64,000 nt of DNA from Anthoceros angustus (taxonomy: Eukaryota > Plantae > Anthocerotophyta): NCBI GenBank assembly GCA_010909165.1, contig MU008159.1, forward strand, positions 1,736,001-1,800,000. The letters run 5' to 3'. Below are positions 19,491 to 64,000 of the stretch, piece after piece. The notes under the pieces are model-generated. The model saw only the letters and a program-made list of their open reading frames with translations, had not been told where the DNA came from and did no database searches. Every line of letters begins with the position of its first letter. The stretch's first letter is position 1. The position numbers and the translations under genes were made by a program.

Positions 19491-19499
19491 ATTGGGATC

Positions 19500-20330
19500 C
19501 CCCGCACTCGCAATCCTCCAGTGAGTCTTCTGCTATTCATCCACCCTCTTCATTACTGCTCAGATCTTCCTCAACCCCCGCTACTTCTTTCAAAGGAGCC
19601 GGGTCAGTGGAACCTCGCAGTGCGGGCATCATAACCTCCTTCTTCTCCACCTCCGCTTGACTACGGGCTTTTCTTCTTATTTCTTTCACAGGTTCTTCTT
19701 CCTCATCCTCGGATTCTTCTTCAGAGTCTTCTTCCTCTTCCTCCGATACAACCTCAGTCTCCTCATCCTCCTCTTAGGGTTCTTCATCTTGAGTCAGGCC
19801 CCTTCTTCTTTTCTTCTTCCTCCGGGCGTCCTCGGTCATCGTTGGTGCATCGATTCTTCGTAGTTCTCCGCCGCTCGGACCGCCTTGCTCACATCCTTCT
19901 CTGCCAACAGCAGCACGTGCTTAGCCATTGGCTTGGGTAAGCCAGCTGCGAACCAACGTACCGCCTGCATGGTGGTGTGGGTGGGGTGTCGATCTCAAGA
20001 GCGTAGAACCGTTCGATGTACGATCCCAATTTCTCCGTCTTGCCTCGCTTCAGGTTCTCGAGTTTGGACAAGACGTAGCCTTCTTGATCGATCCCGCGGA
20101 ATCTTTCCAAGAAGGCATCCTTCAATGCTTCGAAGGTCGGGGGCGTTAGGGCGGCGGTACTTTCTCGGTACCAGCGCCGTTCCCGCGGACCCCTTGGAGC
20201 ATTTGGATAAGCTGCGCATCCGAACCTTCTCCGTTGAAGTTGCCCGCGACGAAATCCTCCACGAAGGTTTCGGCGTCTCTCTCCTTCTTACCTCCAAGAG
20301 AGAATGCCTTGGTCGGCGTTGTTGCCATCG
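19500..20330 (-). mobile_element. Gypsy-type gag (Retrotrans_gag-like) with an acidic/basic tail
   Basis: DAETFVEDFVAGNF...DAQLIQMLQG and KDAFLERFRGIDQEGYVLSKLENLKRGKTEKLGSYIERF (ORFs 20146-20328 and 19889-20125). Confidence 0.75.
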
Positions 20331-35300: not shown

Positions 35301-35840
35301 GGTATAAATACCCTCCAAGCCTCATCTCAATGAGAGAGCTGCCTCCTCCTCTCCTCTCCTCTTTCCCCATCATATGCGCCACACGATCCTTCTGGTGATA
35401 CTTGACTCGGTTTGCCGAGGCATGGATGAGTCGCCGGGCCGCACTCTTCAATGACTATTATCGATCTTGATGACCACTTCCTCCTTTGATTGTTTGTTGC
35501 AATGTTCTCCGACCTTTGAAATGAGACTCCCGCTAGTACAGGATTGTTTTCATTGTGTTCCACCACTTGAAAGTAAAAGTTTTCGGTTGTAATAAACATA
35601 TGAAAATGGCAGCCCTCTATGCATTCTACTAAAACGCAAACGGGCCCACACCCTACATGCTCCAATTCCTGTGTAGACTTGAAAGTGCATCTTTTATCAA
35701 AGGTATGACCTCGTAAAGGGTAAAGCATTATCAAAGTAGGCAGGATATCTCGTTCTAGGAAAGGTGTTCTTCGTGACAAAGGGGTGTTGTCTCGACCGAA
35801 GGGGGTTACTATATTCCCCCCCTTAAAAAATTATCATGTT
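29338..35840. mobile_element. TIR DNA transposon copy 1 (AACATGATAATTTT...AAAATTATCATGTT) with 4-bp TSD TTGT; hosts a nested Copia
   Basis: TTGT at 29334-29337 and 35841-35844 flanks 14-bp inverted termini. The internal sequence is homologous to 50519-54462. Confidence 0.85.
30658..35392 (+). mobile_element. Full-length but frameshifted Ty1/Copia (Tnt1/Tork-like); LTRs 30658-30909 and 35147-~35392
   Basis: Near-identical LTRs starting TGTAAG. Degenerate Met PBS at 30910 (agcggtatcgagc) and PPT aagtgggaggt. Gag FNIEKLDGTNF (~31410), integrase ~32750-33360, RT YVDDML (~34200), RNaseH ~34660-35090. The empty site GCGGTGGTACTTGACT is seen in TIR copy 2 (~52955 and ~54035). Confidence 0.92.
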
Positions 35841-39055: not shown

Positions 39056-39429
39056 GCATGATTCGCAGACGGGAAGGTGTTGAAAGCATCTTGGGAGGGG
39101 CTCTTGGTAGAGGGCTGTGACAGAGATCGGCTTGTGGCATTTCGCTGGCTAGTCCGCATGCCAAAGGGTCGCCAGGTATTCGGAGTGGCCCCATCATTGT
39201 AAGCGGATGGTCCTTGTTGCATCCAGTGCTTTAACCAATCGTCTTGAGGATAGCCCTCGATCGTGCAGTCCCGGGGACTAGAGGGCTGTAAGCGAATCAC
39301 GTGAAATAGTTACTTCAAGGTACTATAAGTCGTAGTAGCTGAGGGGCAGATTCTTCCCCATTTGAGGCACATAGAGCACAGGCTCTAGGGTTAGTGTGGA
39401 TCCATCAGACATGGGCAACTCGCAGATCC

Positions 39430-40627
39430 CTTGCGAGGAATCGGCTATTTGGATTTAATATTTTCGTCTCCTAGAAGTACCTCTCTCGATTGGGCGTGTG
39501 AGTCAGCTTGGAGAACAGGTGGCTGGTCGTTGCGGATGTGGGCGGTGGCACATGTCAAGATACCACCCTGGTCTTCTGTGGCTGGGTCTTTGAAGCCGAG
39601 CAGCGGTAAGTATCTTCACTGTCTTGGCTTCCTCAGACTTGCCTTTACTTGACGCGCTTCATGATGCAGCGAAGGCTAGGCTTTTAAGGCTCCCCAGCTT
39701 TCTTCTTTCGGCACTCCCACGCCCAGTGGCCGGGAGTTCCGCACCAGTTACAGTTGCCCGTCCGGCGTGGGGGTGCAGAGGACGACTCACCCTTGGAGGT
39801 AGTGGCCTGCTTCCCTTTAGCTTTCCCGGGCTTGAACCGAGCTGCGAGCGCCTTATCCGCCTTGGGCTTGGACCCGCCTGCAGAATTAAGGCGACTTTGC
39901 TCATGTTGGTACAATGCTCCAATAATTTCCTCCACTGTCAGAGAGGAGGTGGAGCCGGTGGTGCCGCGAGTTGACATCAGCATCAGGCTGGTGACAAAAT
40001 GTTGATAAGAACCCGGGAGGCTCATAAGGAGTTGAGCGGCGGCGTCAGTCTCGGTCATCGTCGAGCCGAGAGAAGCTAGCTGCCCTCGCAGCTGTCGGAA
40101 TTTAGATGTATGTGCCGCCACCATGTCTGACTCCTTCATCTTCAGTGCATTGAATTCCTGCCTAACCTTTGTAGAGGTCAGGACATCAACATTATATGTC
40201 TTGGAGAGAGTTGGTTCGGATCGCGGAAGCTCTTCGAATTATGCTTGGATAGCGGAGTCGAGGCGATGAGGAGGGCGATGGCGATCCCATTTAGGTATTC
40301 CCACTTCTCGATACTCGGCCAGCGGTGGGGATAGAAGTGAGGCGGCGGGTGAGTCGCCATCCACCGACCTTCCGAACGCCTCTGTGATCGGCATGGACTT
40401 CATCCGGACCGCCATCTTGGATAGCGGCCCAGTTAGGCCGTTTGTTCCTTTATCTGATCGGTGAAGATGGGTATGGCGCCTGGGGTTGTGGTCGAGGTGC
40501 TACTGGCCATTGAGGTTGTCGTGTTCAAAGAGAGTGAGCTTAATTGCTGAATCAACTGGTCCACAAAGGAATTGTAGCCTGTGGTCATAAAAACGGGCCT
40601 GGGAGTCAACATTAGCTCCTTCCTCAA
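39430..40627 (-). CDS. Copia gag, CCHC knuckle and degenerate protease (frameshifted)
   Basis: ORF 39684-40139: MKESDMVAAHTSKFRQLRGQLASLG...CNWCGTPGHWAWEC. Confidence 0.85.
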
Positions 40628-44097: not shown

Positions 44098-44883
44098 TCT
44101 TTCTATACCCTCATAGCCAAGATTCTCGTTGAGGATGGTAGTCTTGTCAATGTAGTTGGCAAGGGATTCGGAATCATCTTGGTAAAGGTCTAACAAGTGG
44201 TTGTTGTCACAATCCAGGCAGGCGGGCAGGCTCTTGGCTTGTGCAAGCTTGTGCAAGCCGTGTTCACACAGGACCTTACCCTACCAGTTATGTTCCCTAC
44301 TGGGGGAAACTTCTAAGTTTCTATTCATAATTCCTTGCATCACTACAGTTCATGTTGAATCGAAACGAAACCAAATTTGGTGTAGCTCCGGAGGCCCAAA
44401 CTTTTGGGTTCCAAACTTTTGGGTTCCATTTGTTGGTAAGGATCTTTTGGCACATGGCGAGATAGACTCTACGCAAGAGTGTCTTTTTCCCTCCGCACTT
44501 GTACCTCAATACAGATCTAACACAAGTACATACTTCAAGAGAGAACGCATCCCAAGGCTTCGGATAAGAACAGCGTCAACTGTACTAGCACACCCAGTAA
44601 AATTTTGGTGACAGGGAGAGAGGGGATGGGACGTCTTGTCTCCTAGGAAGCAAAGCTATTACTTCCTCAGACTTCCGGCCTCCCAGCTTAAGACTTAGTC
44701 CACTACCTTGATGCTTATCCCCTCTTTATTCAATCCTAAGACTTAGTCGACTATGTCGCGCTACTGGCTGCATAGCGTTCAAGACACACGGAAAAATTAT
44801 GTGGAGAGCGTTCATAATGATCCGCACCCAAAACAAACCCACACACGTGATGCTCATCTTAAGACTGTTCAAAACTGCCAATG

Positions 44884-45356
44884 GCAAAATTTCATTTCAG
44901 CTTGGATGTAGGATCCAACTCGCTCACCCACACTTCCCAAGAGCTGTCGCTGTCCAAGGAAACTTCGTTATGCTACGTTGGGATCCGTATGGCTGCTCCT
45001 AGAACAAACATAAGCAATCCGCCCGCTGCTCAGACTACTTGCTATCTTATACTGCCTAAGTGCTTGGCGCGCCTTCTCGCCGAATCACAGTTTCGCGCCG
45101 CCTTTGACACCCTCACGAAAAGGCGGCGATGCCTCCGAACGCTGGCTCTCAATTCAGCAATTACGGTGATCACGATTTTGACACCCGCCACCCACACGCG
45201 ATTTGTGGCCATCCTCGAACTCACGATGCATGTTCAGCATTGCATGCACATGCATGCATGCATGCCCACCATGCATGCATGTCCATAGCGGACATACATA
45301 CCACATTCATGCACATGCATGCACCCACATACCCTTCACGACACAACACGGTGTCA
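44884..45356 (-). repeat. 3' LTR (homologous span) with a CATGCA array
   Basis: Aligns by eye with 59668-60174. The left boundary is uncertain. Confidence 0.8.
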
Positions 45357-45624
45357 TGGCGGTTGTCGCTCGGGCGCATAGCGTTCAAGACACACGGAAA
45401 AATTATGTGGAGAGCGTTCATAATGATCCGCTACTTTGGCCCATTGGCGATTTTGAAAGTCTTAAGATGGCATCGGTGTAGCGGTTTGCCATTGCTGCTT
45501 GGGCATCATATCCCATAAAACCTTCTATAGAACGCGAAACATACTATCACGAAGTTGTGAGAAGGCGTTCATGCTCGTTCACAGCCAATAAAGCGCCACC
45601 GCCTCTCTTGAGGTCGATATTCGA

Positions 45625-46188
45625 TCACTTGTGCCTTTCCCACTGCCGTTCTGCGGCTCGGTGGCGAGCCATAAGTTCTTCTTCCTCATCACTGTCAAGC
45701 TCCGTCTTGACTCTGGCCATCTGTGGCCCATTCAAGCCATTCACGTAGTACTGCTTCTCGATACATTGGGTGCGTAAATAATCACCTACGTTGTTGTTGA
45801 GCAAGTACCAGCACTCGGTTGTAGGCTCATCCCATTCTAGAATTCCTGTCCGCAAGCAAGCAAACAGGCGGTAAAAAGCTCTGGGGTAGCCTATGGCGTA
45901 CCGTCCTGCTTTCTCCCGATGTAAATGACTAAGCCACACTTTCAAACTGCGCAAATCTGCAGGTTTCTCCTGTTGCTTATACACCAGAAACCCTTCCTTG
46001 GGCCAGTGATCAAACACCTGATGCATAAAGAGGTGATGCTCCAATTTGCGAAATGCCCCTTCACAGTAGCTAGTCCACACGAACGTTTGCCTATTCATTC
46101 CCCTCCCTGCAAGTTCAAACAAATCCTTGTGGTCATATGGAAAATTTTTGACCTTGCAAGTCTCATGATGAGACTCCACATACGACAA
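45625..46188 (-). CDS. Uncharacterised 187-aa extra ORF between the integrase/PHD and the 3' LTR
   Basis: Uninterrupted ORF with globular composition and an acidic tail (DSDEEEE). No family recognised. Confidence 0.55.
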   Translation of the reverse strand: MSYVESHHETCKVKNFPYDHKDLFELAGRGMNRQTFVWTSYCEGAFRKLEHHLFMHQVFDHWPKEGFLVYKQQEKPADLRSLKVWLSHLHREKAGRYAIGYPRAFYRLFACLRTGILEWDEPTTECWYLLNNNVGDYLRTQCIEKQYYVNGLNGPQMARVKTELDSDEEEELMARHRAAERQWERHK

Positions 46189-47002
46189 AATGCACCTGTA
46201 ATTCCGTGAATGTCTCGGCCGTTACGGTTTACGGTGATATTTGCGAACCAGAGGAGTACGCCACTTATCTTCCCATGGCCGCTCAGGAAATTGGGGCACA
46301 CTATGATGCATCCTGCGGAAGCAGGTCTTACATGTGTGATCTGCTTCCAGATCCATTGTCAAAGCTCTACACCACACCACAGTCTCCTGCCGTTAGTCGC
46401 GATGTCACAATTCCCACCCGCTCTGCCAGCATGCAGGTGAAGACTTCGTCAGTGGCTTTTTCTACGGCATCGCCAACCCGTTGGTGTCGGCCAACCTACA
46501 GTCACCCGGGAACAACCGTGCTCACAAGGGCGCGATTGTCGTGCGACAGAGGCTCTCAACTCCACCAGGGTTATGAGCTTGTCTTCTCATCAGAATCGGA
46601 AGCGCGACCTCAATCCACAGATGACCAGCAAATCACCTTGATGCAAGGATGCCACGCTTGCGATCAGTTCCTCACGATGCGGATGCCCGATCGCGGCGTT
46701 GTTGTGCCCACTGTCGACCTCCTATCGCCGCCCACCTTGTCTTTGTTGGCCCAATTCGCGATGCTTAGTTTGCGCTCCATCACGTGTGCCTCACCAGTGC
46801 CTTAGTGCGGAACCTCTCTGACTATTTCTACACTGATAACCTAACCCTTTGCCTGAACAAGTATGACCCCGTTTCTGCGGTAGGGCTTCAAACACTCATA
46901 TCTGTTGTATTGCCATCATCCAAAAACACCTTTGTTACTACCCCACTCATGCTCCTGTGCTGCCCGCGCGGCTTGCGAACGGGCTCTTTGCACAGGTAGA
47001 CC

Positions 47003-48200
47003 CTATTGGGTCGTGGTTGACGAACTTGCAACATTCATGAGGCACCCGCCTGGCCCCCCAGCCACTTGATTTGCTTGTGGATGAGCACACCGGTGGCAGA
47101 ACCATTCACCGTCTGGAATTGTTCTGAGTGGCGGTCGCAAGCAAAAAACGTGGTACCCTCCGTTGCATTTGTCACAAAGCAACATCACCGGGATCGATGC
47201 GTGACCGCAGAACTCACAAGGCGGATCAATCGGTGGTTTCCATGCTGCGGTTGCGTTCTTGTGTCGAGATTGGGCAAGTGGCACGGTGCCGGTGTCGCAT
47301 GTGCTCTTTGCACGAACAAGTATGACCCGTTTACTGCGGTAGGGCTTCAAACACTCATATCATTGTATTGCCATCATCCAAAACATCTTTGTTACTACCC
47401 CACTCATGCTCAGCTGCGGCTTGCGAACGGGTCTTCTGAGATAGACCCTATTGGGTCGTGGTTGGCGAACTTGCAGCATTCATGAGGCACCCACCTGGCC
47501 CCCCAGCCACTTGATTTGCTTGTGGATGAGCACACCGGTGGCAGAACCATTCACCGTCTGGAATAGTTCTGAGTGGCGGTCGCAAGCAAAAAACGTGATA
47601 CCCTCCGTTGCATTTGTCACAAAGCAACATCAGCTCAGGATCAGTAACGTGACCGCAGAACTCACAAGGCAGATCAATCGGTGGTTTCCATGCCTGCGGT
47701 TGCGTTCTTGTGTCGAGATTGGGCAAGTGGCACGGTGCCGGTGTCGCATGTGCTCTTTGCACGAACAAGTATGACCCGTTTACTGCGGTAGGGCTTCAAA
47801 CACTCATATCATTGTATTGCCATCATCCAAAACATCTTTGTTACTACCCCACTCATGCTCAGCTGCGGCTTGCGAACGGGTCTTCTGAGATAGACCCTAT
47901 TGGGTCGTGGTTGACGAACTTGCAACATTCATGAGGCACCCGCCTGGCCCCCCAGCCACTTGATTTGCTTGTGGATGAGCACACCGGTGGCAGAACCATT
48001 CACCGTCTGGAATTGTTCTGAGTGGCGGTCGCAAGCAAAAAACGTGGTACCCTCCGTTGCATTTGTCACAAAGCAACATCAGCTCAGGATCAGTAACGTG
48101 ACCGCAGAACTCACAAGGCGATCAATCGGTGGTTTCCATGCGGTTGCGTTCTTGTGTCGAGATTGGGCAAGTGGCACGCCGTGTGTCGCATGCTCTTGCA
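47003..48200 (-). CDS. PHD finger at the integrase C-terminus, three near-identical copies
   Basis: CEFCGHVTDPELMLLCDKCNGGYHVFCLRPPLRTIPDGEWFCHRC is a complete C4HC3 pattern (ORFs 47003-47350, 47448-47768, 47897-48079). Confidence 0.92.
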
Positions 48201-49374
48201 CCGACGCCCATCTTGCCCTTCCAACTCAATCACCCTTGCTCACCGACGTGGACTACTCGCAAGATCAAGCGTCCGGTGCTCACATCTAAAGTAGTTGAGG
48301 GTCGATCTGCGAGTAAACGAGTGCCGCCTCAAACTTCCTTGCTTTGGGTTTCAGATCCTCCACAGTGAATGCATATCAGTTGGTCCCGATGTTGGGCTAT
48401 AGCAAGATTATCCATGGCCATTGGCATCACACGTTGAACGACTTTGCTCTTGCTTGCAATTCGACAAACATCCCATAGGATCCTGTGCCCAGTCCACGGG
48501 CTTGGAGTAAGTGTCTGCTACTATGTTTGGCATGATTGCATTTCGGCCAAACATGATGTAGTAGGGACTGAAGTTACCAAGCGCGGCTTGCACACTGATT
48601 CGGTATCCTAGAGCTACATAAGGCAATAGCTCGTCCCAGCAACTGGGCTCTATCTCCATACAATATTTGCGCAGAGAGTCCTTGAAGGTCTGGACTAAAC
48701 GCTCCGCCAACCCATCAGCCTGCGGGTGATCCCGGGAGGTTCGTCTGTGATCTATCAGACTTCGATCCAGCAGTGCTTGAAACTCTCCTCGAAACTCATT
48801 GCCTTGGTCCGTCAACACCTCAGCACAGCTACCGTATCTGCTGAGAACACATTGCAAAAACGCCCGTGCGGTATATTGCGAACCGATTGGCGAAGGCCAA
48901 CTCCACCCGCCAATGTTCGATCATCAACATGCAATGTCTGTTGCCTGCAGTGGTAGTAGTTCGGCATTAGATCGGCAGACCATCGAAGAAAAGTCCACGA
49001 TGGGTAGCGAATGCAACACCACATCTTGGCTGGAGAATCTGGCCTTTACTGCATCACACGGCACATTTGGCCACCACCTTTTCAACGTCTGCATACATAC
49101 CCGACCAAAAGTACGCATTTTTCAACATATGATGAGTCCGCTTCACTCCAAAGTGGCCAAGCGTGACATGTACCTTGGTCACCAATTGCCTCCTCTCTCC
49201 TATGGGTGGTACTTCCTTGAGCACTCCACGATCCGTGACCCACACCTTACCGTTTTCATAAGTGTAACGAACGATTTTCCGTTGTAGTTTTTGCAGCGCT
49301 GAGGCATCCATACCAGTGACCTGTCCATCCGTGGCGTAGTAGCTCATTCTTCCATATGTCTCTTCCTCCCTCAT
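48200..49374 (-). CDS. Gypsy integrase (H2C2 zinc-binding domain and DDE core), frameshifted
   Basis: VHVTLGHFGVKRTHHML...FWSGMYADVEKVVAKC; EVLTDQGNEF...HPQADGLAERLVQTFK. Confidence 0.93.
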
Positions 49375-49437
49375 TGCCTTCCATCTTCCTTACGTAGACA
49401 TCAGGCCATGTAATAAGCGGGCATGCTTTGAATGAGT

Positions 49438-50515
49438 TTAAAGTCTGCCTTGCTCCATCCACATCTCCTTTGTCGCACATTGGGTTTCTCTCCCGTCGGC
49501 ATTGAGATGTACTTTACCCGCTCGATGCACAATCTGCATATCATACTCTGAAAGTAAAAGCACCCATCTGGCAAGTTTCCCACTCAATTTCATGTTTGTC
49601 ATCAGCCAGTGAAGGGGCTGATGATCTGTGATCAGTTGAAAGCTCCGACCAAACAAATACACTCTGAAATGTAAAACCGCCCAAACTGCAGCCAGGCATT
49701 CCCCTTCATACGATGAGTAGTTTGCTTCCGCAGCATTGTTGGACCTACTTGCATATGCGACAACTCGCTCCTTTCCTTCTTCACCTGTCTGGGCCAGCAC
49801 AGCTCCAAGACCAGCCGCACTCCAGTCCGTATATAAGACAAACGGCTTATCAAAATCAGGCCTTTTGAGCATTGGCCTTTCCGCTAGCTGGTTCTTCAAC
49901 TCCTGCCAAGCCTGTTCCTGTGCTTGTCCCCATCGCCAAGGCACTCCCTTCTTGAGCAATTCATACAGTACCTTGCATATGCTGCTCATGTTTCGGACAA
50001 ACCGGCGGTAGTAATTGACAAGTCCCAGAAATGCCCTTCAAGGCGGCAATGTCTCTAGGCCGGGGCATGAGATCAATTGCCCGCACCTTGGCCAGCTGAG
50101 GCAACACCCCACCTGGAACTATCTTATGTCCCAGGTATTCTATCTCCTTGTAAGCAAACTTGCACTTCTTTGGGTGTGCCTTCAACCCTGACTTGGCCAA
50201 TCTTTGCAGCAAAACCTCAAGGTGTTGGAGATGTTCTTCCAGGCTGTCACTGAACACTAAGATGTCGTCGATGTAACATCTTACAAACGATACCCCTCAG
50301 AATTCCAAATCACCACACGAAATAAATGGATGCGTTTTCAAACCAAATGGCATTGTTTCCCACTCCCATACCGGGTCCTTACCCCAAAACGCGGTCTTGC
50401 ACTTGTCTCTTTCTTCGATGACTATTTGATTGAATCGACCGAAATCCAATGTAGTGAAATACTTGGCTCATCAATGGCATCAAAGATTTCATCCGGCGTT
50501 GGCATGGGATATCGC
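49438..50515 (-). CDS. Gypsy RT (C-terminal part) and RNase H
   Basis: RYPMPTPDEIFDAID; YIDDILVFSDSLEEHLQHL; FVLYTDWSAAGLGAVL...YEGECLAAVW...LITDHQPL. Confidence 0.95.
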
Positions 50516-50518
50516 TCC

Positions 50519-53500
50519 AACACGATAATTTTGAAGGGGTGAATAATCAAGGGGTTTTGATGGGCCCTAAAATGCTTTTGAAGGCATTCGGAAAACAGCT
50601 CAAAAAAGGGTGTCACCCAGTTACTACTTTCCATCCAAAGAATGTTTGTGTCGAATGGTGGTCGCAACTCGAACCTAGGGAATGATGCAAAGTAGGAACG
50701 GTGAGGAAGGCCGCTCGCCGGCAAGACGATCAGAACTCGCTTTTGGGATGGAAATGTGGTTTTGTTATGACACCACAAAAGACATGGTATTTCCTAACAC
50801 GAAACATCAAGAACCGGACTTACAACATTAACTCGGGACCCCGAAAACGAGATTTCGCCACTCATCCCCGTAGTTCAATCCATCGTCATCACTTGGTCCA
50901 GGTCCTTCTCCTCCATTGTCATCACTATCTTCAGACACTTTCACTCGCAGTTGTATGAAGCCACGCAACTCGCAGAGCTTATCCCTTATCGCTTTTTGTC
51001 CACCGTGACATGATGTTTCCGCGCTCAACACGATAATTTTGAAGGGGTGAATAATCAAGGGGTTTTGATGGGCCCTAAAGCAGCGTTTTGAAGGCATTAT
51101 GGAAAAAATTCAAAAAAGGGTGTCACCAAGAAAGTTACTACTTTCCATCCAAAGAATGTTTGTGTCGAATGGTGGTCGCAACTCGAACCTAGGGAATGAT
51201 GCAAAGTAGGAACGGTGAGGAAGGCCGCTCACGCAGGACGATCAGAACTCGCTTTGGGAAATGTGGTTTTGTTATGACACCACAAAAGCCACTTGGTATT
51301 TCCTAACACGTAAACATCAACCTGGACTTACAACATTAACTCGGGACCCCGGAAAACGAGATTTCGCCACTCATCCCCGTAGTTCAATCCATCGTCATCA
51401 CTTGGTCCAAATTTTCCTCCATTGTCATCACTATCTTCAGACACTTTCACTCGCAGTTGTATGAAGCCACGCAACTCGCAGAGCTTATCCCTTATCGCTT
51501 TTTGTCCACCACAGATATGTATGCTCAACATAAAACCCATAATACAGATGACTGCTTCATCTACAAATACCTCTGTATGTTTTTAGGTAATGGATCTTAT
51601 TCCCTTTTTCCTCAAGATTGGACCGATGGGTTACCACTCTGGCGGACTATGTGTTCCCGCATATCTCCTTCATACGCATCTATGTGCTCGGTCCGATACT
51701 AGTGGATAAGAAAGTGAGGTCGTGGTGCGTTTAGCTTCACGCCAATGACCTCCCAATCCGAATGGCACATTATGCATGTCCGTATTGCACGGCACGTAAA
51801 CATCCCTCTCGGTTCCGTTATGTCCCCATTCATCCGCCATTTCCGCAGCTTGCCTTCCCGCATTTTGATATGCCCCAAATACATATCACGTGGAGGTCCC
51901 TCAATAATGCCTCATCTAGCAAAGCTTCATCCGCACTTGAAGTGGTCAGTCAGTATGATCCACTTCGCACGTGAAAACCACTTCCAAGGACGTAGCACTA
52001 GCCCAATGTTATTCTCCACAACGATAGCAATCTCCTTCCGTCCAACAAAGCTTCCCACCACTTATACTCTTCAACAACACCTATGGACGCAAATCTTTTA
52101 ACCCTTCCCCGCAAATGGGCCACACCTTCCATCGGTGATAGGATACCGCTGCCCTTCTTGTCCCCCTAGCTTCACCCAGATGCACCGTAGGATGGGCAGG
52201 AGGGCGCCGGCCGGCCCTCCCCCAAGATGCCTCGCTCGCGGCCGGCCGGCCGCCTCCCCTAGCACACTGCCCATGGCGCCGCCGGCGCCTCCCCTAGCAC
52301 ACCATGAGCCGGCCGGCCGCCCCCAGCACACGCCCATGGCGCCGGCCGGCCGCCTCCCCTAGCACACCGCCCATGGGCCGGCCGCCGCCTCCCCTAGCAC
52401 ACCGCCCATGGGCGCCGGCCGCCGCCGCCTCCCCTAGCACACTGCCCATGGGCCGGCCGCCGCCCCCAACACGCCTGCCGGCCGGCCGCCCCCAACACAT
52501 GCCTTGCCCATGGGCGCCGGCCGGCCGCCCCTAGCACACCGCCCATGGGCCGGCCGCCCTCCCTCCTAGGCTGTCTTCCAGAAAATAAATATTTAGCACC
52601 TCAAGATGGATTGTTGGTCTAGTGTTTGGGAAACAAGTGTAATAATGAATAGGTTTCGTGTTCAAACCTCGTGCCTCCACAATAGTTCAATTTTGTTGAT
52701 TTTAAGGATGCTTGCATGGGCGCATGGGCAACTAACTTTGTTCATTTTAAGGACGTTGGCATTGCCTTAAAGCCCAAGTGGTTGCATTGAGTGCCGAAGG
52801 TTGAAGACCACGACCGCGACCTTTTGGATGAGGGTCAGACCCTAGATCTTTGTGTGGCGACACCGCGGACCCAAGAATGATACTATTGAAGACGAGCAAG
52901 CAATGGAGGAGAACGACAACTTCGAGGCGAGGATATGGACCGCCTCGAATATGGCGGTGGTACTTGACTGCCAAGAAGGCATGGATGAGTCGCCAGCCGC
53001 ACTCTTGAATGGCTATTGTCGATGCCGATGACCACTTCCTCCTTCAGCTTGTTGCAATGTTCTCACGACCACTTAAATGAGACTCCGCTAGTACAGATTG
53101 TTTTCATTGTGTTCCACCACTTGAAAGTAAAAGTTTTCGGTTGTAATAAACATATGAAAATGGCAGCCTCTATGCATTCTACTAAACGAACGGGCCCACA
53201 CCCTCATGCTCCAGCCTCGGTGTAGACTTGAAAGTGCATCTTTATCAAAGATATGACCTCGTAAAGGGTGTGTGCATTATCAAAGTAGGGCACATATGTC
53301 GCTCTAGGTAAGGTGTTCTTCGTGACAAGGTCTTACCAAGGGGGCCGTGATATCCCCTTCAAAATTATCGTGTTCTCCATGGGTGTCACCTCATTCAAAG
53401 CACGATAGTCTCCACATCCTTCTCGTTCCATTCGCCATTCTCGCTAACGAATACTGCCGCAGATATTGAGGTAGACTTCGATTAGTCCACCCGCCTCCTT

Positions 53501-54462
53501 GCATCTCCTATCCACAATGTCCCACTCCATGGGACTCTTCGGCCCCAACATCGGTTCATTGGTGGTAGTGGTGATCTTGAACTTGATACGATCATACCGC
53601 CTCACCACCTCAAATTTAAACGCGAAGGTGTGCCGGTTACCGCAGATATCCCGAATCTTCGTTGATCGGCTTCTTCTAACTCTTCGCATCGCCACTCATG
53701 TGTTGAGTTTACTGCCTGCTTCTCTTGTGTCGTCACGGTCCACTGCGATGTTCGCCGTATGACCTCCTTTGTGCGTCAGATTGGAAACTCGCCTTCTTCA
53801 AGCACGATAGATGCATATCACCCGCCTTGCACATATCTATTTGTGTGGCGGACCCACGCTCAAGCCATTGCAGGTGGATCAAGCGCTTGACCCAAAGAAC
53901 TTGCATCGATATGTTTGAAATGCCCGCGTGATGGTCCCGTCCGTGATCAAACCCCATGGCCCTTTCGGCTCCATCACCGTGGGCTCACCTACCTCATTTC
54001 CGAGATCCACCACGGTGCCCCCGCCTCGAATATGGCGGTGGTACTTGACTCGGTTCGGCGCAAGGCATGGATGAGTCGCCGGGCACTCTTGAATGGCTAT
54101 TGATCATGACCACTTCCTCCTTGATTGTTTGTTGCAATGTTCTCACGACCACTTAAATGAGACTCCTAATGCAGAGTTGTTTCATTGTGTTCCACCACTT
54201 GAAAGTAAAAGTTTTCGGTTGTAATAAACATATGAAAATGGCAGCCCTCTATGCATTCTACTAAAGCATAAGCGGGCCCACACCCTCATGCTCCGGTTCT
54301 CGGTGTAGACTTGAAAGTGCATCTTTTATCAAAGATATGACCTCGGAAAGGGTGTGTGCATTATCAAAGTAGGGCACATATCTTTTGTTCTAGGTAAGGT
54401 GTTCTTCGTGACAAGGGGTGTTGTCTCGGCGAAGTCAGTTATCCCTTCAAAATTATCGTGTT
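50519..54462. mobile_element. TIR DNA transposon copy 2 (AACACGATAATTTTGAAGGG...CCCTTCAAAATTATCGTGTT) with 4-bp TSD CTCC, inserted in RT
   Basis: CTCC at 50515-50518 and 54463-54466. Removal restores RT ...VTPME-RYPMP. Both ends also appear re-copied (~51027 and ~53374). Confidence 0.85.
52230..52560. repeat. GC-rich minisatellite, unit ~38 bp (GCCGGCCGCCGCCTCCCCTAGCACACCGCCCATGGGC); related tract at 29860-30260
   Basis: Multiple imperfect units visible directly. Confidence 0.85.
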
Positions 54463-54469
54463 CTCCATG

Positions 54470-54790
54470 GGTGTCACCTCATTCAAAGCGATAGTCTCCA
54501 CATCACATCCGTCGTTCCATTCGCCATTCTCGTCCTTTTTAACACGATTGCCTTGCATAGACTTTACAGTTAGTCCATTCTTTGACTCCTTGCATCTCCT
54601 ATCCACAATGTCCCCTCCATGGGACTCGGCACATGCCTTCGTCTGAATCTTGGTTCATTGGTGGTAGTGGTGATCTTGAACTTGATACGATCATACCGCG
54701 GCTCGGCCCCTAAAGCGAAGGTGTGCGGTTCGGCACTGCATATCCGAATCTTGATCGTTGATCGGCTTCTTCTAACTCTTATATCCGCCA
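54470..54790 (-). CDS. Pre-RT linker and RT N-terminus
   Basis: RYDRIKFKITTTTNEP...SPMEWDIVDRRCKE (clearer in the duplicate at 53444-53695), then a degenerate KDENGE...CGDYR.LNEVTPME. Confidence 0.8.
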
Positions 54791-54939
54791 CTCATGTGTT
54801 GAGTTCTGCTGTCTGTTCTCTTGTCGTCCACGGTCCACTGCGATGTTGTGCGTATGACCTCCTTTGTGTATTTGTATATCGCCTTCTTCAAGCGATAGAT
54901 GCATATCACCTCCCGCCTTGCACATATCTATTTGTGTGG

Positions 54940-55860
54940 CCAGACCCACGTTCAACAGCCATTGCAGGCAGGTCAGATCAAACGCTTGACCCAGCAACTT
55001 GCATCGATATGTTTCAGAAATGCCCGTGATGGTCCCGTCCGCATCAAACCCCATGGCCCTTTCGCGCTCCATCACTGTGGGCTCACCTACCTCATTTCCA
55101 GCGAGATCCACCACGGTGCCGTCCCCGCCTCTCCGAAGGCATAAGATTGGGCGCCCCTACAGTGTGGGCCAGCCCTTCGGCTTCCCAACCTTATTTACGG
55201 AAATCGTGGAGGTTTGTCCATCTGACGCCGTGGAGCGCCCGCCTCTTCTAAGATGTCATCCACATATCGCTTTCTAGTTTGGTCAACTCACGGTGTTGCT
55301 CGAGAACCTCTACACCGGTCACGTTGTCCAAAACTTCGCACCGGTGGGCGTATGAGCCCGCTTATGCGCAAAGATCAATAATGAATTCCTCTCCTATCCA
55401 ACTTCTGAGCTGCTTGTAGCCCCTCCTCACATGTTCACGTTTATCGAATGCTCCGCACACATTCTCCAGCACGTACCAGCAAGTGGGATTGATTGATCAA
55501 CTTCCTTCTCCCGACATTGTGCCACTTCCACACCGTCACCCTTTCCACAACCGGCCCTGGAAAATGTCCTGCATTCCCATCCTGTAAGCAGCATATCGAC
55601 CGGGCACTGATCGCTTCCACCGCTGCTTCCTACCAATCGGCGTCGTGGGGTAACTGCTCGACATCCCTTCACCGCCTCCATGCTTAGTAATCCGGATACG
55701 CCTTTGCATCCCCGAGCATCCGGATTTGGCCACTGCACGCGTGCCTTCTCGCCCACTTCAACACACGTGTATTTCCTCACCGTATTCCACTCTTCAATAC
55801 CGCTCAAGCCCGCCATCGATCCTCGAACACGCCCATGAGGTGTATACTCCACGTTGCCAC
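54940..55860 (-). CDS. Cytosine-5 DNA methyltransferase catalytic domain, frameshifted
   Basis: Motifs in canonical order: I-like (HLMGVF..SMAGL..VLKSGI..RKY, ~55770-55850); IV (VDMLLTGWEC, Cys codon 55571-55573); VI (YVLENV, ENV at 55458-55466); VIII (GSYAHR..FWT, ~55327-55358); IX-X (EPTVMERERAMGF...RCKLLGQAFDLTCLQWL, ORF 54779-55114). Confidence 0.88.
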
Positions 55861-56329
55861 CGAATCACATCCGTATTGATCCTTAAAGCGGCGCTGTCTA
55901 AGGCTCCCAACCTGGGCAAACATTTTTCCGGACACACATCGGTGGCCTGCCACACCTTAGCCTGGCTTTGTCGGGTGAGCTCCGGGCCAAAGCTTTCGAC
56001 AGCAAGGGGGTTTTTTTTACATACATACACCCACTGCTTTGACGCTCCTCCTGCTCCTCTTCCCGCACGAGTTCCTGAGTTTCTTCCCACACCACTTGCC
56101 TGTGCACAATGTCAGCCGTACAGGCCGTGAATGCAATCATGCTATTTGATCTCTCAGCATGTCGCCTCATATCAAGCGGGATCCTGGCCACTTGTGTGAA
56201 GTCCCCATCCCGCCACCGCGGCCTATAAAACGCTTCTGAGTAAGTGCATTTCATTGTGGGCCGTGCGTGGCATCAGCCCCAAGTAGCACATCGTAATTCC
56301 TTGCGTTAGACACCAAGCAATGAACTTCG

Positions 56330-57900
56330 ATGATAGAGGCATCTTTTGTGCCTGGCTTGAACTCTATGCGTACTGGCTCACGAGTCATTCCCATCACCGC
56401 CTTGGTTCCCGCAGATGTGGTAATGTGCACTTCACATGGCTTAAGCTTATCCTCAGATAGCTGGAGAGCCTTCTATACCCGTGCCCGAGCAACACGGGTC
56501 CGCGTATCCACCAACACATGTTCGAGCAAAGCCGTTGACCGTTACCTCCGACCTTGATTATTGACCATGGCAATGCCTCCTTTGCCCCGGTGCCGGCTTG
56601 TGTGATCCCCACGAGGCCGACGATCCGGACACTGGTCGCGTCCTGCGAGACTCCTTTGTATCCAGCCTTCATGGCTCGCTTAAACGGCTTGACTCCCGTG
56701 ATCACGCAAGCTCATCACGGGCACATCCATCACCTTCTCGAGCATAAGTTCAAGATCGGGTGATTTCTCTGTATCTCCTCCGGTCTTCTTCATACGCCTA
56801 AAGGATTTGGGCATCTTGAGTGATTCCTTTCCTCACCCTTCTTTCTTCGCACCGCTCCACCCAGTCGACGCTAGTCCGTTCATCCTCAAAGCGACTTGTG
56901 GCCATTAGCGCATACACCGATCCGAATCATAATCCTGATAATCCGGATTTGGCCACCGCACTTCTCGCCCACTTCAACACACGTGTATTTCCTCACCGTA
57001 TTCCACTCTTCAATACCGCTCAAGCCCGCCATCGATCCTCGAACACGCCCATGAGGTGTATACTCGTCCGTTGCCACCGAATCACATCCAGATTGATCCT
57101 TAAAGCGCCGTCTAAGGCTCCCAACTGGCAAACATTTTTCCGGACACACATCGGTGGCTGCCACACCTTAGCCTGGCTTTGTCGGGTGAGCTCCCGGGCC
57201 AAAGCTTTCGACAGCAAGGGGGTTTTTTTCACATACATACACCCACTGCTTTGACGCTCCTCCTGCTCCTCTTCCCACACAAGTTCCTGAGTTTCTTCCC
57301 ACACCACTTGCCTGTGCACAATGTCAGCCGTACAGGCCGTGAATGCAATCATGCTATTTCGATCTCTCAAAGATGTCGCCTCATATCAAGCGGGATCGCC
57401 ACTTGTGTGAAGTCCCCATCCCGCCACCGCGCCTATAAACGCTCGAGTGCAACGGGTCTACCCCATTGTCAGCCGCATGTGGCATCGCCCCCAAGTAGCA
57501 CATCGTAATTCCTTGCGTTAGACACCAAGCAATGAACTTCATGGGAGGCATCTTTGTGCCCGGCTTGAACTCTATGCGCATCGGCTCACGAGTCATTCCC
57601 ATCACCGCCTTGGTTCCTGCGGATGTGGTAATGTGCACTTCACATGGCTTAAGCTTATCCCCGTATAGTGGAGAGCCTTCTATACCCGTGCCCGAGCAAC
57701 ACCGGGTCCGTATCCACCAACACATGTTCTCGAGCAAAGCCGCTGACCGTTACCTCCGACCTTGATTATTGACCATGGCAATGCCCCTTTCGTGCTGGCC
57801 GGGGTGTGATCCCCACGAGGCCGACGATCCGGACACTGGTCGCACCCAGACTTTTGTATCCAGGCCTTCATGGCTCGCTTAAACGGTTAAGGCTCTTGAC
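56330..57900 (-). CDS. Aspartic protease and linker, present as two tandem copies
   Basis: Frameshifted VLVDT(G)..PVLLG followed by KLKPCEVHITTSAGTKAVMGMTREP (ORF 57381-57737; copy at ~56330-56530). Confidence 0.7.
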
Positions 57901-58249
57901 TCCCGGATCACGCAAGCTCATCACGCACATCCATCACCTTCTCGAGCATAAGTTCAAGATCGGGTGATTTCTCTTCGACGTCCGCTCCTCCCGATCTTCT
58001 TCATCGCCTAAAGGATTTGGGCATCTTGAGTGATTCCTTTCCTCACCCTTCTTTCTTCGCACCGCTCCACCCAGTCGACGCTAGTCCGCTCATCCTCGAC
58101 TTGCGGCCATTAGCGCATACACCTCGGATCCGAATCATAATCCTCGTGATAGCAACCGAGCTCTGCTTACACTCATGGCTAGCTTTTCTTGCACTGCACC
58201 TCATCGAGCGCTTTCGGGTGTACCTCCGTTGATTTTGCCTTGGCGACAT

Positions 58250-59550
58250 CCGCTCCACAACCCCTTTGGCTTAAATTCGTGATGAGCTCGCCAACATGCC
58301 GCCCAGATGTCCGGTTTTGGCACACGCTCGCATTGCTCCTTCTCCTTCGCCCCCAACCCGATACTCACACTCAAGGCCTTGTGCCCCTCGCAGAAGACAT
58401 TTCACCGTGGCTTTGTTGGTGGCGGGCCGCGTGTCCTTGGGGAATTCGCGTGTTCACTGAGTGTGCTCAGCTGCGTGGTTCTTCCTTGAAACCTTGGGTT
58501 GTTCATGGCATGCGTCCCTCCTCACCGCATTGTGCTCCTCCCAGTAAGCACTTGTCACCGCGTCGCCCTTCATGACCCGTTCGGCCATCTCATAGGCTTG
58601 TTCTAGCTCGTAGTCGGCACCATGCATCATGTGCAGGAAATTGGCAATCACTCTTCTTTGTCTTCCCGGAAGGGCAGCTGTGTAGATCTGGGCGGCTTCT
58701 CGCATCGTCTTCACACGCGTGTCTTTCACCAGTTGCCTCAGCCTCAAATAGGCGGATCTGAGAGGTTCGTTGGGCTTGATGGTGAACTCGAGCCTCGAAT
58801 CTTCTCTATAGAGGCTACCGGAACATTTCACAATTTGGAGAACATTTCGCCACTGTACGTGATGGCATCGCCAGTGGAACCGGACGACTCCTCCATCCGC
58901 TTTCAACATCTTCTTGGCCATTCTTGCCACGGCGAGCCACGATCCCGCAAGATCGATCCTTGCAACACGGTAGCAAGTCGGCCTCTCCGCAAGAAACGTG
59001 CTCATCTTCCTTAGTGCCATTTCGGGCGTGAATTGGACTTGTACTTGAGCACCATCTCATCGATTGCCCACGAACTTTTCCTCAAAATCACCAATGACAT
59101 GCCATGTCCGCCGGAACACATCATTTTTACTAGGCGCTATCTCGTATTCCATTCCGACTCCACTACCACTCTCTTCAAATGCTATGGATCGGATGGGACT
59201 ATACACCCTCTCAATCTGACCACTTGGCTTATGGACTGAGGGATATTGTGTGACAGGACTGCGAGCTTCCTGAGTAGGAGTAAACTCGTTTGTCCACCCA
59301 GACCGCAGAAACACCATTACCTTACCAATCCCTTCCTCTGCGAGAAACTATGTATGGCATGTCATCAAAGTTAGTGTTGGCTCCCCCTTCCGTCCAATCA
59401 GCCAACCATGACAGTTTGTCAATCACTTCATCCCACAACCTCTGCCACAAATATGCGGGTTCTAGTTCTGCTAGGGCTAAATGCGTAATGGACCGACCCG
59501 CATAAAACAACACCGAGTAGTCTACAAAGACCTCATCACAGCTCACCATG
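58250..59550 (-). CDS. Gag, frameshifted
   Basis: ORF 58454-59020 (EFTIKPNEPLRSAYLRLRQLV...AAQIYTAALP...YELEQAYEMAERV) is a Retrotrans_gag-like helical region. Degenerate knuckle near 58350-58420. Position between the 5' LTR and the protease. Confidence 0.7.
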
Positions 59551-59667: not shown

Positions 59668-60174
59668 GCAAAATTTCATTTCAGCTTGATGTAGGATCCA
59701 ACTCGCTCATCCACACTTCCCAAGAGCCGTCATGTCCAAGGAAACTTCGTTATGCTACGTTGGGATCCGTATGGTCGCCTCCTAGAACAAACATCGCAAT
59801 CCGCCCCGCTGCTCGCTTGCTATCTTATATCGCCTAAGTGCTTGGCGCCTTCTCTCGCCAATCACAGCCTCGCGCGCCGACACCCTCCCCGAAAGACGGG
59901 CGATGCCTCAGAACGCGGCTCAATAATTACGCAATTACGGTGATCACGATTTTGACACCGCCACCCACACGCGATTTGTGGCCATCCTCGAACTCACAGA
60001 TGCATGCCCACCATGCATGCACATGCATGCACATCCAGATGCATGTTCAGCATTGCATGCACATCCAGCATGCATGCCCACCATGCATGCATATCCATGT
60101 TTTACATACATACCACATTCATGCACATGCATGCACCCACATACCCCTTTACCGAACACAACACCAGGGTGTCA
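59668..60174 (-). repeat. 5' LTR (homologous span) with a CATGCA array
   Basis: Matches 44884-45356. On the minus strand it starts TGACAC. Confidence 0.8.
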
Positions 60175-60569
60175 TGACAACTACCTTTATGCTTATTCCC
60201 TCTTTATTCAATCCATGAAAGCAGTAATCCCTATGTGCTACATGCTAAAAAGTCACCTAAATGATGCACATGCAAGCTTCTTGCACGGCTTTGAATTTGC
60301 AGTCCGTCATCCGCCACCGGCATGTATATGCCACCGTATTATACAAAGGAGGTCAAGTGAATCTTCCCGTGTGCTCGGCATCAACCCGATCGGATGGCGG
60401 ATCGTCCCTTCTTCGGCGGAACTCGCCCGCCTACTTATATATAATAAACTCCGACTTCATCAAAGGAACCAAGGCAAACCAAGTCACCAGAGCGAAACCG
60501 CACACAGGAAGAACATGTTCACCTTGTCTCGCACAACAAGATGGAAGGCGAAAGTTTTTCACCTGATCC

Positions 60570-60728
60570 GTCCATCGCGGACAATAACACCGCCAAGCTC
60601 TTTGCGTGCCTGTTTGTCATCTTTGGTGTTGCCTTCTTGGACACCCTTTTGAGCGACCTCGTGACCTTTGTGTTGAATAAGCAAGAGACTCTTTTGCTGA
60701 GTGCTGTGGAGGGGGGGCACCATGAGAC
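60570..60728 (+). pseudogene. Fragment of a two-pore K+ channel (TPK family), interrupted by a Copia LTR
   Basis: TAKLFACLFVIFGVAFLDTLLSDLVTFVLNKQETLLLSAVEGGHHE resembles the helix after pore 1 in plant TPKs. The GYGD filter is absent. Confidence 0.7.
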
Positions 60729-63700
60729 TGTTAGAAAACAGTAATTCCCAGGTTCAGTACATTAGAAATGGTGTGCTATGCATACATATATAGCCTTTGG
60801 CCTTGTCATACTCTCGATAGTATGAAACCCTATCTCGCTCCTGGGATAATCCTATATACTTCTAGGACTTATACTCATAACTCTAATATGTGATGTGTTG
60901 CACCAATCCTATAGATTTCTAACACTCCCACTCAACACATCAGTGCTACTCTTTTAAGCCTAACATCTTGCTAAACTAAACGTGCTTCTCTAAAGTCAAC
61001 CCTTTGGTCAAAACATCTGCAGGCATGTCCATAGTGGGACAGTATGCTAGCTCTATCTCCTTGGATTGAACTTTCTCTCTGATGAAGTGATGCTTTACTT
61101 CAATGTGTTTCGTCCTCGTGAAAAGTAGCATTCTTTGCTAAGTAAATGCAACCTTGATTGTCGTTGAAGATGGTTGTTGCACCCTTCCGCTTAAATCCCA
61201 TTTCTTGAGCAATCGTCGTAGCCATATTGCTTCCATTGTTGCAGATATTGCCATGTACTCCGCTCAGAGGACAAAGCCACGAGGGTCGACGCCTACTACT
61301 CCATGAAATGGCTCCCCAAATAGCATAAACACATATCCTGTGGTAGACTTGCCATCGACATCTCCACAATCAATCAAAATCCAACCACCGGGCGTCTTCA
61401 TGTCGATCCTTTTGGTATTGCAACTTCCAATGTTTTGTGCCGCAAGTATCCGAATATCCTCTTGATCGCTTGATAATCTTGTCGGGTTGGCCAAGAATCG
61501 ACTCACAACTCCCACGCCCGCAATGTCGGGCCTTGTCCTGTTGCCAAATATGTAAGACAGCCAACGCACGTTGATAGAGAGTCTTATCTATCTTCTCTTT
61601 CTCCTTTTCGTTGTAGGGCTCATCTCCTGCGATAGCTTCTCATTGAAGATCATTGGCGTCTTCATGGGTTTGCAATCTTGCATGCCGAAACGCTCCAATA
61701 TGGTCTCCACATATGTTTGTTGGCTCAAAGAGATCTGTTTGTTAGCCCTATTCCTTTCCACCTTTATTCCTAGGAATAGTGGAGCTCACCCAAATCTCTC
61801 ATGTCAAAGCTTGCATTAAGGCTTTGCTTTACTGAGTCTAAGAGTTCCATGTCATTGCTAGCAATAATCAAATCGTCCACATAAACAGCAATGATAATTA
61901 TGGATTCTCCCACTCTCTTCACATAGATATTCCAATCGATTGGTTTTCTTGAAACCTCTAGACTGGAAAAACACATCAACCTTACGATACCAAGCAAGGC
62001 GGTTGCTTAAGACCATACAGAGCCTTTAGCAGCCTACATACCTCTCCCTCGCGTCACGGTATTTCGTATCCCTCGGCTGGTCCATGTAGATCTCTTCATC
62101 CGGATCTCCATTCAGAACGCAATGTAACATCCATATGATGTATCTCCATGTCGGCGGCTGCGATAGCTAGGAGAGCTCGGATAGATGCTATCTTAGCGGG
62201 GAGAAGGTATCGATAATCCACACACGGGACTTGTGTATATCCTTTCCCCACCTTGCCTTGTAGCGCTCTATGCTTCCATCACCTTGCGCTTAATCTTGAA
62301 TGTCCACTTTGATCCTATGCTCTTCCTTCCGTGAGGTAGAGGAGTGATTGCCCAAGTTTTGTTCTTGAGAAGAGAGTTATACTCACGCCCACGGCTTCTT
62401 TCCACTCCTTTGCCTTTTGGTCCTTCCAATGCTTCCTTAGGCTTTGTGGTTCGCACATCCGCCAACCATGCCTCCTCATACACATGCATTCATGGATTCC
62501 AAGATCTTCTGAAGGTTTCCATTGTCTCGTTGATCTTCTCAAGATTGGTTGTCTCTCTCGAATACTTGAGCTTCCTCTTCTTCGACAATGCTTTGATCTT
62601 CATCTACTTCTCCAATCGCGACATCGAATTTCCCTTTCTCCCCTCTATGTCGCATTGTTGAGAAGGTTCTGGGCTCGAGCGGTTGCTCAAGAGTGTCATC
62701 ATAGTAATCCTCATTAGGGTCGCCAACATACGCCGTCGGATCCTTCATGATAACCGGGGTTGGAGCTCCCACTCCTTTGATGGGTTCCACAACCTCATTA
62801 AATACAACATCCTCGCTAAAATGATCTTCTTCCTTGAAAGATCATACAACCGTAGCCCTTAATCTCGAGAGTATCCAAGCATAAGGCACTTCACGCCTTT
62901 TGGATCCCATTTTGTTCGGGTTTGCTTGAACGTGAGCATAAACCATCGAACCAAAGATCCTCAAATGGCTTATGTCGGGCTTGACGCTGCAGACGCTTCC
63001 TCCGGGTCATTCCAACAATAGCTTTGGTTGGAACTCGATTCAAAACATAGGTTGTCAGTAATGCCTCACCCCAAAACGTACTTCCAAGCCACTATGATGT
63101 AACATGCATTTAGCGCCAGACTCCTAAGTTTGCGCTCCGCCACTCCATTTTGCTCCGGTGTGTGAGGGATGGTTAGTTGCCTTCCAATTCCATGCTCCTT
63201 GCAAAAGCGTTGGAAGTCGTGGAGATGTATTCACCTCCGTTGTCACTACGCAAAGTCTTGACGTTGTCCACTTCATGCTTCTCCACCATGGCTTTCCATT
63301 CCTTGAAGAGTGTAAATACCGGGATTTCTCCTTCATAAGATATGTCCAGTCTTCCTAGTGAAATCATCCACAAACACGAATGTAGCGGGCTCCGCCATGA
63401 GTGGATTTTCATTGGACCACACACATCCGTGTGTACCAACTCTAGCGCCATCTTTGCTCGTGCAATCTTGGGAACTTAGTTCGGTGTAGCTTTCCCATTA
63501 TGCACCCTTGGCATAATTGCGCTCACCCACTTCTTTCAAATCCAAGCCCAGTAACCATATGTTGGTTCTTCATCAACTGATATTGTCCACACCAATGTGC
63601 CCTAGACGTTGATGCCATAAATCAATAGATCCAATGCTATTTTGAATCGTCCATAAAGGTGCAAGCTTGCCTTCCCACGAAGCACACAACTTGTACAAAT

Positions 63701-64000
63701 TTCCTACTCGGACGCCCTAGCAATCACTTTAGCATTCGATAACTCAGTGCTCGATTGGATCCAAATCCTTTGGAATTGAACACAACCTCATGACGATCGG
63801 CAATTTTGCGGAAAGAAGATTCCTCGCAAGATGAGGCACATGATGCACGCCCTTAATACTCAGATGTCCTCCGGAAGATGGACTCGTAACACTCCTCTTC
63901 CCTTGATGTCATGTGACCTATTGTCACCAAGCGCCACCGTATGCCCCTCCGCAATACCTCGTAGCTTGAGAACCAAGGAAGGTTATAATCGAAATGCTTT
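60729..64000 (-). mobile_element. Ty1/Copia running off the window: 3' LTR 60729-60924, then RNaseH, RT and integrase
   Basis: TGTTAG...CTAACA LTR followed by PPT CTCCCACTC. Motifs TKHIEVKHHFIRE, IAVYVDDLIIASN, LELVHTDVCGPM and LRSDNGGEY. Confidence 0.92.

Follow-up and report, generated by a model that had tools for sequence, protein, structure and literature searches.

The closest described system to the element reported here is KnitGypsy-Dnmt3 of the alga Klebsormidium nitens, in which a Dnmt3 sits within a Gypsy element whose repeats are called DIRS-like in the legend of Figure 4c (de Mendoza et al., 2018; PMC5890265). Here and below, statements on sources cited by PMC number or DOI refer to the portions of their text that were available. 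Elements of this kind are named “streptophyte Gypsy-DNMT3” in a preprint (bioRxiv 10.64898/2026.05.21.726589), whose available text does not detail these streptophytes, and the 2018 result is restated in PMC12344493. In yeast, KnitGypsy-Dnmt3 gave no methylation, in a test that its authors call inconclusive; SymbioDIRS-Dnmt3 methylates CG in yeast (PMC5890265). Since 2018, the question has stood of what DNA methyltransferases (DNMTs) borne by retrotransposons do; their Gypsy form had been recorded in one alga. Neither a methyltransferase nor a PHD finger appears in the available main text of the REXdb classification (Neumann et al., 2019; PMC6317226), and elements of the type described below go unmentioned in the available text of PMC11982613, PMC9033089, PMC10952607, PMC8557442, and 10.1101/2021.11.30.470311.

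We describe an element of the KnitGypsy-Dnmt3 kind in Anthoceros angustus (Anthocerotophyta). It lies in a stretch of 64,000 nucleotides of contig MU008159.1 (assembly GCA_010909165.1), the whole of which was analyzed and is referred to as the window. A preliminary description of this DNA had already related the locus to the retrotransposon-borne DNMTs that de Mendoza et al. (2018) described in dinoflagellates and charophyte algae, and our results place it with their Klebsormidium element (PMC5890265, available text); because the window element is of that kind, the fusion itself is already known. What goes beyond it is the range of the lineage, from chlorophytes to liverworts, and the anatomy of the element ends. 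We found no published description of land-plant or chlorophyte copies or of this junction anatomy, for which supplements, Repbase, or theses might be a source.

Element Architecture

Results for the individual parts of the element are summarized in Table 1. Read on the minus strand, the domains follow the order gag-PR-DNMT-RT-RH-INT-PHD, and we put the probability that this is a Gypsy element with a Dnmt3-like DNMT at roughly 0.95. The preliminary description had presented it as an LTR retrotransposon in which the DNMT is colinear with gag and protease upstream and with RT, RNase H, and integrase downstream. Its domain order holds, for an element that is of the Gypsy type. However, the RT is not unbroken, as an element with terminal inverted repeats (TIRs) and its own 4-bp duplication lies within it, and a canonical LTR pair is lacking: two complete direct LTRs were not found at the ends of the window element, where the repeats are instead split into blocks A and B. 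That description mentioned neither the split repeats nor the C-terminal PHD finger, nor did it recognize the insertion within RT. Since the nested insertion interrupts RT, the window copy is dead whatever the sequencing noise, and the activity that had been considered for the enzyme cannot be ascribed to this copy itself.

Table 1. Features of the window element, listed 5′ to 3′ on the minus strand with positions counted in the window.
Feature	Position	Strand	Support or remark
4-bp target-site duplication TAGT, 5′ side	60180..60183	-	identical to 44750-44753
Repeat A1, starts TGTCATG	59668..60179	-	81% identity to A2 amid indel noise
gag, broken	58277..59056	-	blastp E 1.4e-5 to L050 gag; weak profile match 58807-58277
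Second protease copy from tandem duplication of 55718-56936, probable assembly artefact	56941..58144	-	33 gap events in 1248 columns
Aspartic protease	56272..56622	-	gag-protease profile 47.6 bits, E 1.5e-16
Dnmt3-like C5 DNA methyltransferase	54932..55830	-	profile alignment; motif I ~55830-55800 by eye
Linker and RT N-terminus	54463..54750	-	duplicated at 53375-53671, matching P0010 residues 490-601
Nested element, 21-bp terminal inverted repeats, 4-bp duplication GGAG	50519..54462	.	interrupts RT
RT, C-terminal part	49961..50514	-	PF00078 E 5e-16
RNase H	49438..50037	-	PF17917 E 2e-38
Integrase (H2C2 finger, core, C-terminal part)	48141..49389	-	PF17921 E 6e-15, PF00665 E 0.004
C-terminal PHD finger, three tandem copies	47087..48181	-	PF00628 E 2.5e-12 and 4e-10
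198-aa open frame between pol and B1	45625..46221	-	ORF list
Repeat B1, ends CGACA	45364..45490	-	56-bp core identical to B2; start approximate
2-nt spacer of internal B1/A2 junction	45362..45363	-	2-nt spacing shared by 18 relatives
Repeat A2, first bases degenerate	44884..45361	-	81% identical to A1
Repeat B2, ends CGACA at element 3′ end	44754..44883	-	56-bp core identical to B1
4-bp target-site duplication TAGT, 3′ side	44750..44753	-	matches 5′ side

Within the coordinates given for the nested element there is also a 1.1-kb duplication that covers the end of the DNMT and the start of RT; sequence related to this TIR element also occurs at ~29376–35794, where it holds a Copia element itself. 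The three PHD copies probably represent one copy and its assembly duplicates. The 198-aa frame has no Pfam match and no relative among the loci and proteins compared. Its nearest Atlas clusters are mostly of SUKH/SMI1-KNR4 type (0.90–0.91; 147 shared features at 0.91), which is a weak lead, and its predicted model has a pLDDT of only 35. Over its first ~50 bp (44827–44883), B2 matches in reverse complement, at 82%, the sequence that precedes the core of B1 (45440–45490), perhaps as the result of an inversion at the joined end.

Self-comparison shows the window to be repeat-rich, with many adjacent duplications of 0.3–1.2 kb. Indel-rich examples are found at 8498–9886, 16139–18559, 46847–48201, and 55718–58144, and these probably inflate the assembly. 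Six adjacent-duplicate pairs have gap-rich differences and many transversions; differences between A1 and A2 in seven metagenome loci are transition-dominated. We infer that the duplications and most of the frameshifts are long-read assembly noise. Elsewhere in the window, two exons at 2309–2623 (plus strand) match the plant family PF09713, and an exon-like piece at 60420–60741 (plus strand), which we take to resemble a two-pore K+ channel, is without a clear pore motif; its portion at 60508–60741 has no Pfam match and no homolog. More decayed Copia/Gypsy sequences lie at 36278–40238 (minus), 31400–35100 (plus), 25000–26700 (minus), 61100–64000 (minus), 4400–10300, and 18700–20300, with some of their domains confirmed by Pfam and the rest recognized by eye. 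Judged from the window alone, the PF09713 exons show the host to be a green plant, and the appearance of the neighboring Copia and Gypsy elements makes a land plant plausible. No tRNA genes were found within the window.

The Methyltransferase Domain

A Dnmt3-type C5 methyltransferase domain spans positions 55803–54932 on the minus strand, between the protease and the start of RT. Its frameshift-aware profile alignment, which crosses 6 frame breaks and 2 stops, scores 152 bits over profile positions 19–329 of 332, compared to at most 19.4 bits for 12 shuffles, 16.6 for the plus strand, and 16.4 for the reversed sequence. Profile-profile comparison gives a probability of 99.4 (E = 1.4e-21), and motifs I, IV (GWEC), VI (ENV), VIII, IX, and X are ordered along the minus strand, although distributed over three frames. 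Searched singly, the broken frames have no match to PF00145 in Pfam, none in the PDB, and nothing in a word-index search. One frame, with its stops written as X, retrieved 89 relatives from 1.84 billion proteins. All 89 match the retro-DNMT profile, which was seeded on retro-DNMT domains, and PF00145 is present in 22 of the 40 that were scanned.

Against the PDB, the DNMT family profile matches DNMT3A (E = 1e-26) and DNMT3B (1e-22) ahead of DRM2 (1e-9) and HhaI (4e-9). Folds were compared using the GWEC relative P0128 in place of the broken window copy; the predicted model of P0128 (pLDDT 84) aligns to DNMT3B/A with a Z score of 28.6 and an rmsd of 2.8 over 278 residues. Motifs I–X are in unpermuted order, unlike those of DRM. 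The domain is closest to DNMT3A/B in sequence, judged by the family profile, and in fold, as predicted for P0128. Both the position of a C5 DNMT between protease and RT and the assignment of that enzyme class, as put forward in the preliminary description, are therefore borne out by the ordered motifs, the bit scores, the PF00145 matches in relatives, and the predicted fold.

The catalytic Cys is kept in 47 of 49 near-complete relative domains, the other two being gaps, and is preceded by Glu (25), Pro (21), or Ser (1). Conservation is similar for the ENV Glu (46/49) and the two Arg of RxR (45/49 and 44/49), where nearly all misses are gaps, and the Cys, the Glu, and both Arg are retained across chlorophyte and streptophyte members. 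Glu and Pro variants are interspersed on the DNMT tree, which makes GWEC one of the common variants rather than evidence of decay. The initial view that GWEC replaces the PC catalytic loop has to be withdrawn, since only the residue before the Cys differs. For the DNMT, dN/dS is 0.46 (91 pairs) vs. 0.39 for RT-RH (66 pairs), and 0.75 in three pairs of the other clade, values between the two clades being saturated; these sequence-level ratios lend the DNMT modest support.

Distribution and Phylogeny of Related Elements

Eight of the best 120 of 368 RNase H relatives contain PF00145 in frame with RT, in each case with the DNMT before RT in one open frame, and 36 contain a PHD finger. Among named sources, proteins with a DNMT were found in Closterium, Marchantia polymorpha (two), and Calypogeia fissa, and named RT/RH/INT relatives were also identified in Klebsormidium, Coleochaete, and Riccia. 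The earlier suggestion that this lineage could extend to land plants is borne out by the DNMT-carrying Marchantia and Calypogeia proteins. A metagenome scan yielded 573 loci, of which 80 were kept; 47 of these hold a DNMT, in many cases upstream of RT. Uninterrupted DNMT frames occur in relatives P0124, L040, and L050, and together with the copies in Marchantia, a genetic model, they make the role of the enzyme testable. Viral contigs gave three pattern matches, none confirmed as a related locus.

The DNMT tree, composed of retro-DNMTs without reference DNMT1, DNMT3, or DRM sequences and midpoint-rooted without an outgroup, has two groups (100/99) that match the position of the domain, either before RT or between RNase H and integrase. 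The window falls in the pre-RT group in both the DNMT and the RT trees. Monoraphidium and Cymbomonas proteins belong to the second group, the RTs of which form their own clade beside the first. This sister architecture, with the DNMT after RNase H and/or before integrase, was observed in P0122, P0155, P0165, P0175, P0178, P0180, P0181, P0206, P0209, P0145, and P0192; its named members are the chlorophytes Monoraphidium and Cymbomonas. The simplest reading would be a single ancient capture within the green lineage, after which the domain changed position, and transfer between hosts is possible. In the RT-RH tree, the window lies in a clade of 142 rows (SH-aLRT 92) with the K. nitens records P0029 and P0077, both of which are without a DNMT. 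A related Gypsy Pol, P0112, carries PF05869, an N6-adenine methyltransferase, ahead of RT as well as a PHD finger between RNase H and integrase, and fits the DAM-LTR elements of bioRxiv 10.64898/2026.05.21.726589 as described in its available text.

A window as indel-rich as this one, with its many adjacent duplications, could be thought to have joined a chance fragment of a host gene to the element, or to contain an assembly chimera. We give this explanation almost no weight, and at the level of the family it is already refuted: the same order recurs in one frame in the eight proteins among the best 120 RNase H relatives, and many of the 47 DNMT-holding loci, out of the 80 that were kept, have the DNMT upstream of RT. 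The length of the window element without its insertion and duplications, ~9.4 kb, also fits the 9–11 kb of complete relatives, and the DNMT and RT trees agree in placing the window in the pre-RT group.

Split Repeats at the Element Ends

The repeats of the window element are arranged as A1-ORFs-B1-nn-A2-B2, with TG/CA ends (TGTCATG...CGACA) and an exact 4-bp target duplication. The ABAB arrangement, or its 3′-terminal BAB part, was found repeatedly in related loci. Of 12 complete elements, 10 have a 4-bp target duplication within one mismatch (exact in 5), a level reached by 6 of 132 control pairs, none of them exactly; loci that repeat an insertion already counted (L001, L020, L021, L023, L054) were excluded from the counts. 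Most related loci come from one closely related clade, so the counts given here are not independent. A longer target duplication, suggested by a 35-bp repeat at both ends, was rejected because this sequence belongs to a tandem repeat that the target already contained; only 4 bp are truly duplicated.

The B1/A2 spacer measures 2 nt in all 18 loci, with CA present in 15 and CA plus TG in 11. At the A2/B2 joint, in contrast to this fixed spacer, the A side does not match the full-length end in 11 of 19. Of 29 related loci, 27 have a purine tract before B1. In 14 of 17 loci, the sequence after A1 forms at least 11 of 13 pairs with a site in A, a score reached by 1 of 280 control windows. For 12 of those 14 the complementary site lies about 33 nt (30–36 nt) behind a TATA-like box, using patterns picked after the sequences had been viewed. 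In L050 the self-priming sequence differs and the complementarity is kept; the duplex is absent in L014, L031, and L063, and neither it nor the purine tract was detected in the window copy. A tRNA primer-binding site was not found either, as no TGG start follows A1 in the window or in the 11 loci shown. Forms with the order A-internal-B and a target duplication also exist (L035, exact; L065, one mismatch), whereas the mirror form, AB-nn-A-internal-B, occurs in 0 of 19 loci with an upstream flank. A CG is found at a distance of 4 bases from the CA end, both in the window and in most relatives.

Proposed Integration Route and Role of the DNMT

As a rule, the integrase of an LTR element acts on the cDNA ends, and the split repeats point to a route that departs from it. 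In relatives, the polypurine tract before B, the self-priming site after A1, and the CA-nn-TG junction together make it likely that the integrase cuts the internal junction, and we favor insertion through that junction, and not through the cDNA ends, as the probable mode of integration. Transcription would begin inside A1 and stop inside A2, the RNA 5′ end would prime its own reverse transcription in the manner of Tf1, and ordinary strand transfers, following standard retrotransposon biology, would give a linear DNA, B-nn-A-internal-B-nn-A, with ends other than TG/CA. The integrase would act on the CA-nn-TG junction of the left repeat, while the two free ends would be joined either before integration, as a two-repeat circle, or afterwards by host repair. 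The product would be exactly A-internal-B-nn-A-B, and a one-repeat circle, or recombination between B1 and B2, would result in A-internal-B, as in L035 and L065. Cleavage of two-LTR circle junctions has been reported for foamy virus integrase (PMC1180852).

The ragged A2/B2 joint is as expected of an end-join and counts for integration through the internal junction. Equal use of both junctions should also give the mirror product, and its count of 0 in 19 means that an unexplained bias is needed. This fixed polarity follows directly if the element is copied in the style of DIRS and Ngaro, with a transcript running from A1 into B2 and the B1/A2 junction serving as template for the rebuilding of both outer ends, which the integrase would then use either like ordinary TG/CA ends or in the form of a single new circle junction; the order A1-B1-A2-B2 is indeed shared with Ngaro, PAT, and VIPER (PMC6681497). 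Such copying nonetheless leaves unexplained why B2 starts at the purine-tract boundary, why A1 ends at the self-priming site, and why the A2/B2 joint is ragged. Pfam searches of the element's ORFs also gave no match to a tyrosine recombinase, with integrase domains present, and we consider this mode of copying unlikely.

As to the DNMT, our best guess, held tentatively and at slightly under even odds, is that its main substrate is the element's own cDNA, because the domain sits in Pol and its catalytic residues are kept. The protease would cut the DNMT out of Pol, and the enzyme would travel in the particle and mark new DNA before its arrival at host chromatin, where the PHD finger would steer the choice of insertion site. 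In nine loci, elements are less depleted in CG (0.41–0.55) than their flanks (0.20–0.35); in the window, the element, at 0.86, is likewise less depleted than three neighboring elements (0.68–0.79), so heavy CG self-methylation is not favored. The dN/dS support, being modest, and the negative yeast result for the Klebsormidium enzyme also weigh against cDNA as the substrate. The lack of extra CG loss would suit a DNMT whose main role lies in DNA binding or in host chromatin, or a weak enzyme in need of host partners, either of which would leave the cDNA unmarked; such a role would also agree with the inactivity of KnitGypsy-Dnmt3 in yeast (PMC5890265) and with Glu in place of the usual Pro before the Cys (25/49). 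It is harder to reconcile with catalytic residues kept from chlorophytes to streptophytes and with a location inside Pol that puts the DNMT in the particle, and we think it rather improbable. The preferred pieces can be assembled into an ancient green-plant Gypsy lineage, present in chlorophytes, charophytes, and liverworts, with att sites in mid-repeat, which integrates through an internal CA-nn-TG junction and whose co-packaged Dnmt3 marks the cDNA, possibly choosing the junction to be cut. As a whole, this composite is speculative and doubtful.

Comparison with Known Systems

The window element shares with KnitGypsy-Dnmt3 an intron-less, non-rearranged Dnmt3 inside a Gypsy Pol, as well as split, DIRS-like repeats, for which the comparison is with the figure legend only (PMC5890265). 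It differs in its host and in belonging to a deep, separate sublineage (67% best identity), and the available account of KnitGypsy-Dnmt3 includes no target duplication, att junction, purine tract, or priming (PMC5890265). The relatives in Closterium, Marchantia, and Calypogeia, and the chlorophyte sister form with the DNMT after RNase H, were not found in print. Annotation tools that rely on LTR pairs would miss such elements, which may be counted as host DNMT3 genes.

SymbioDIRS-Dnmt3, DAM-LTRs, and EpiLTRs likewise place DNA methyltransferases on retrotransposons, with different host elements or enzyme families; the DNMT of EpiLTR, for instance, is sister to DNMT4 and located at the 3′ end of pol (bioRxiv 10.64898/2026.05.21.726589, available text). 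Ngaro, PAT, VIPER, and TATE have the repeat order A1-ORFs-B1-A2-B2, and some bear a methyltransferase (PMC6681497), whereas the window element combines a protease and a DDE integrase with TG/CA ends and a 4-bp duplication of its target. A PHD finger in a green-lineage Gypsy polyprotein is also found in Gypsy-7a_cRei of Chlamydomonas, which has two ordinary LTRs and for which the available text mentions no DNMT (10.1101/2022.06.16.496473). With canonical plant Ty3/Gypsy elements, the lineage has in common the gag-PR-RT-RH-INT order, the 4-bp duplication, and the purine tract, and with Tcn1 the predicted self-priming (PMC6317226). It is set apart from the canonical elements by having no full LTR pair, a DNMT inside Pol, and a PHD finger in place of the chromodomain.
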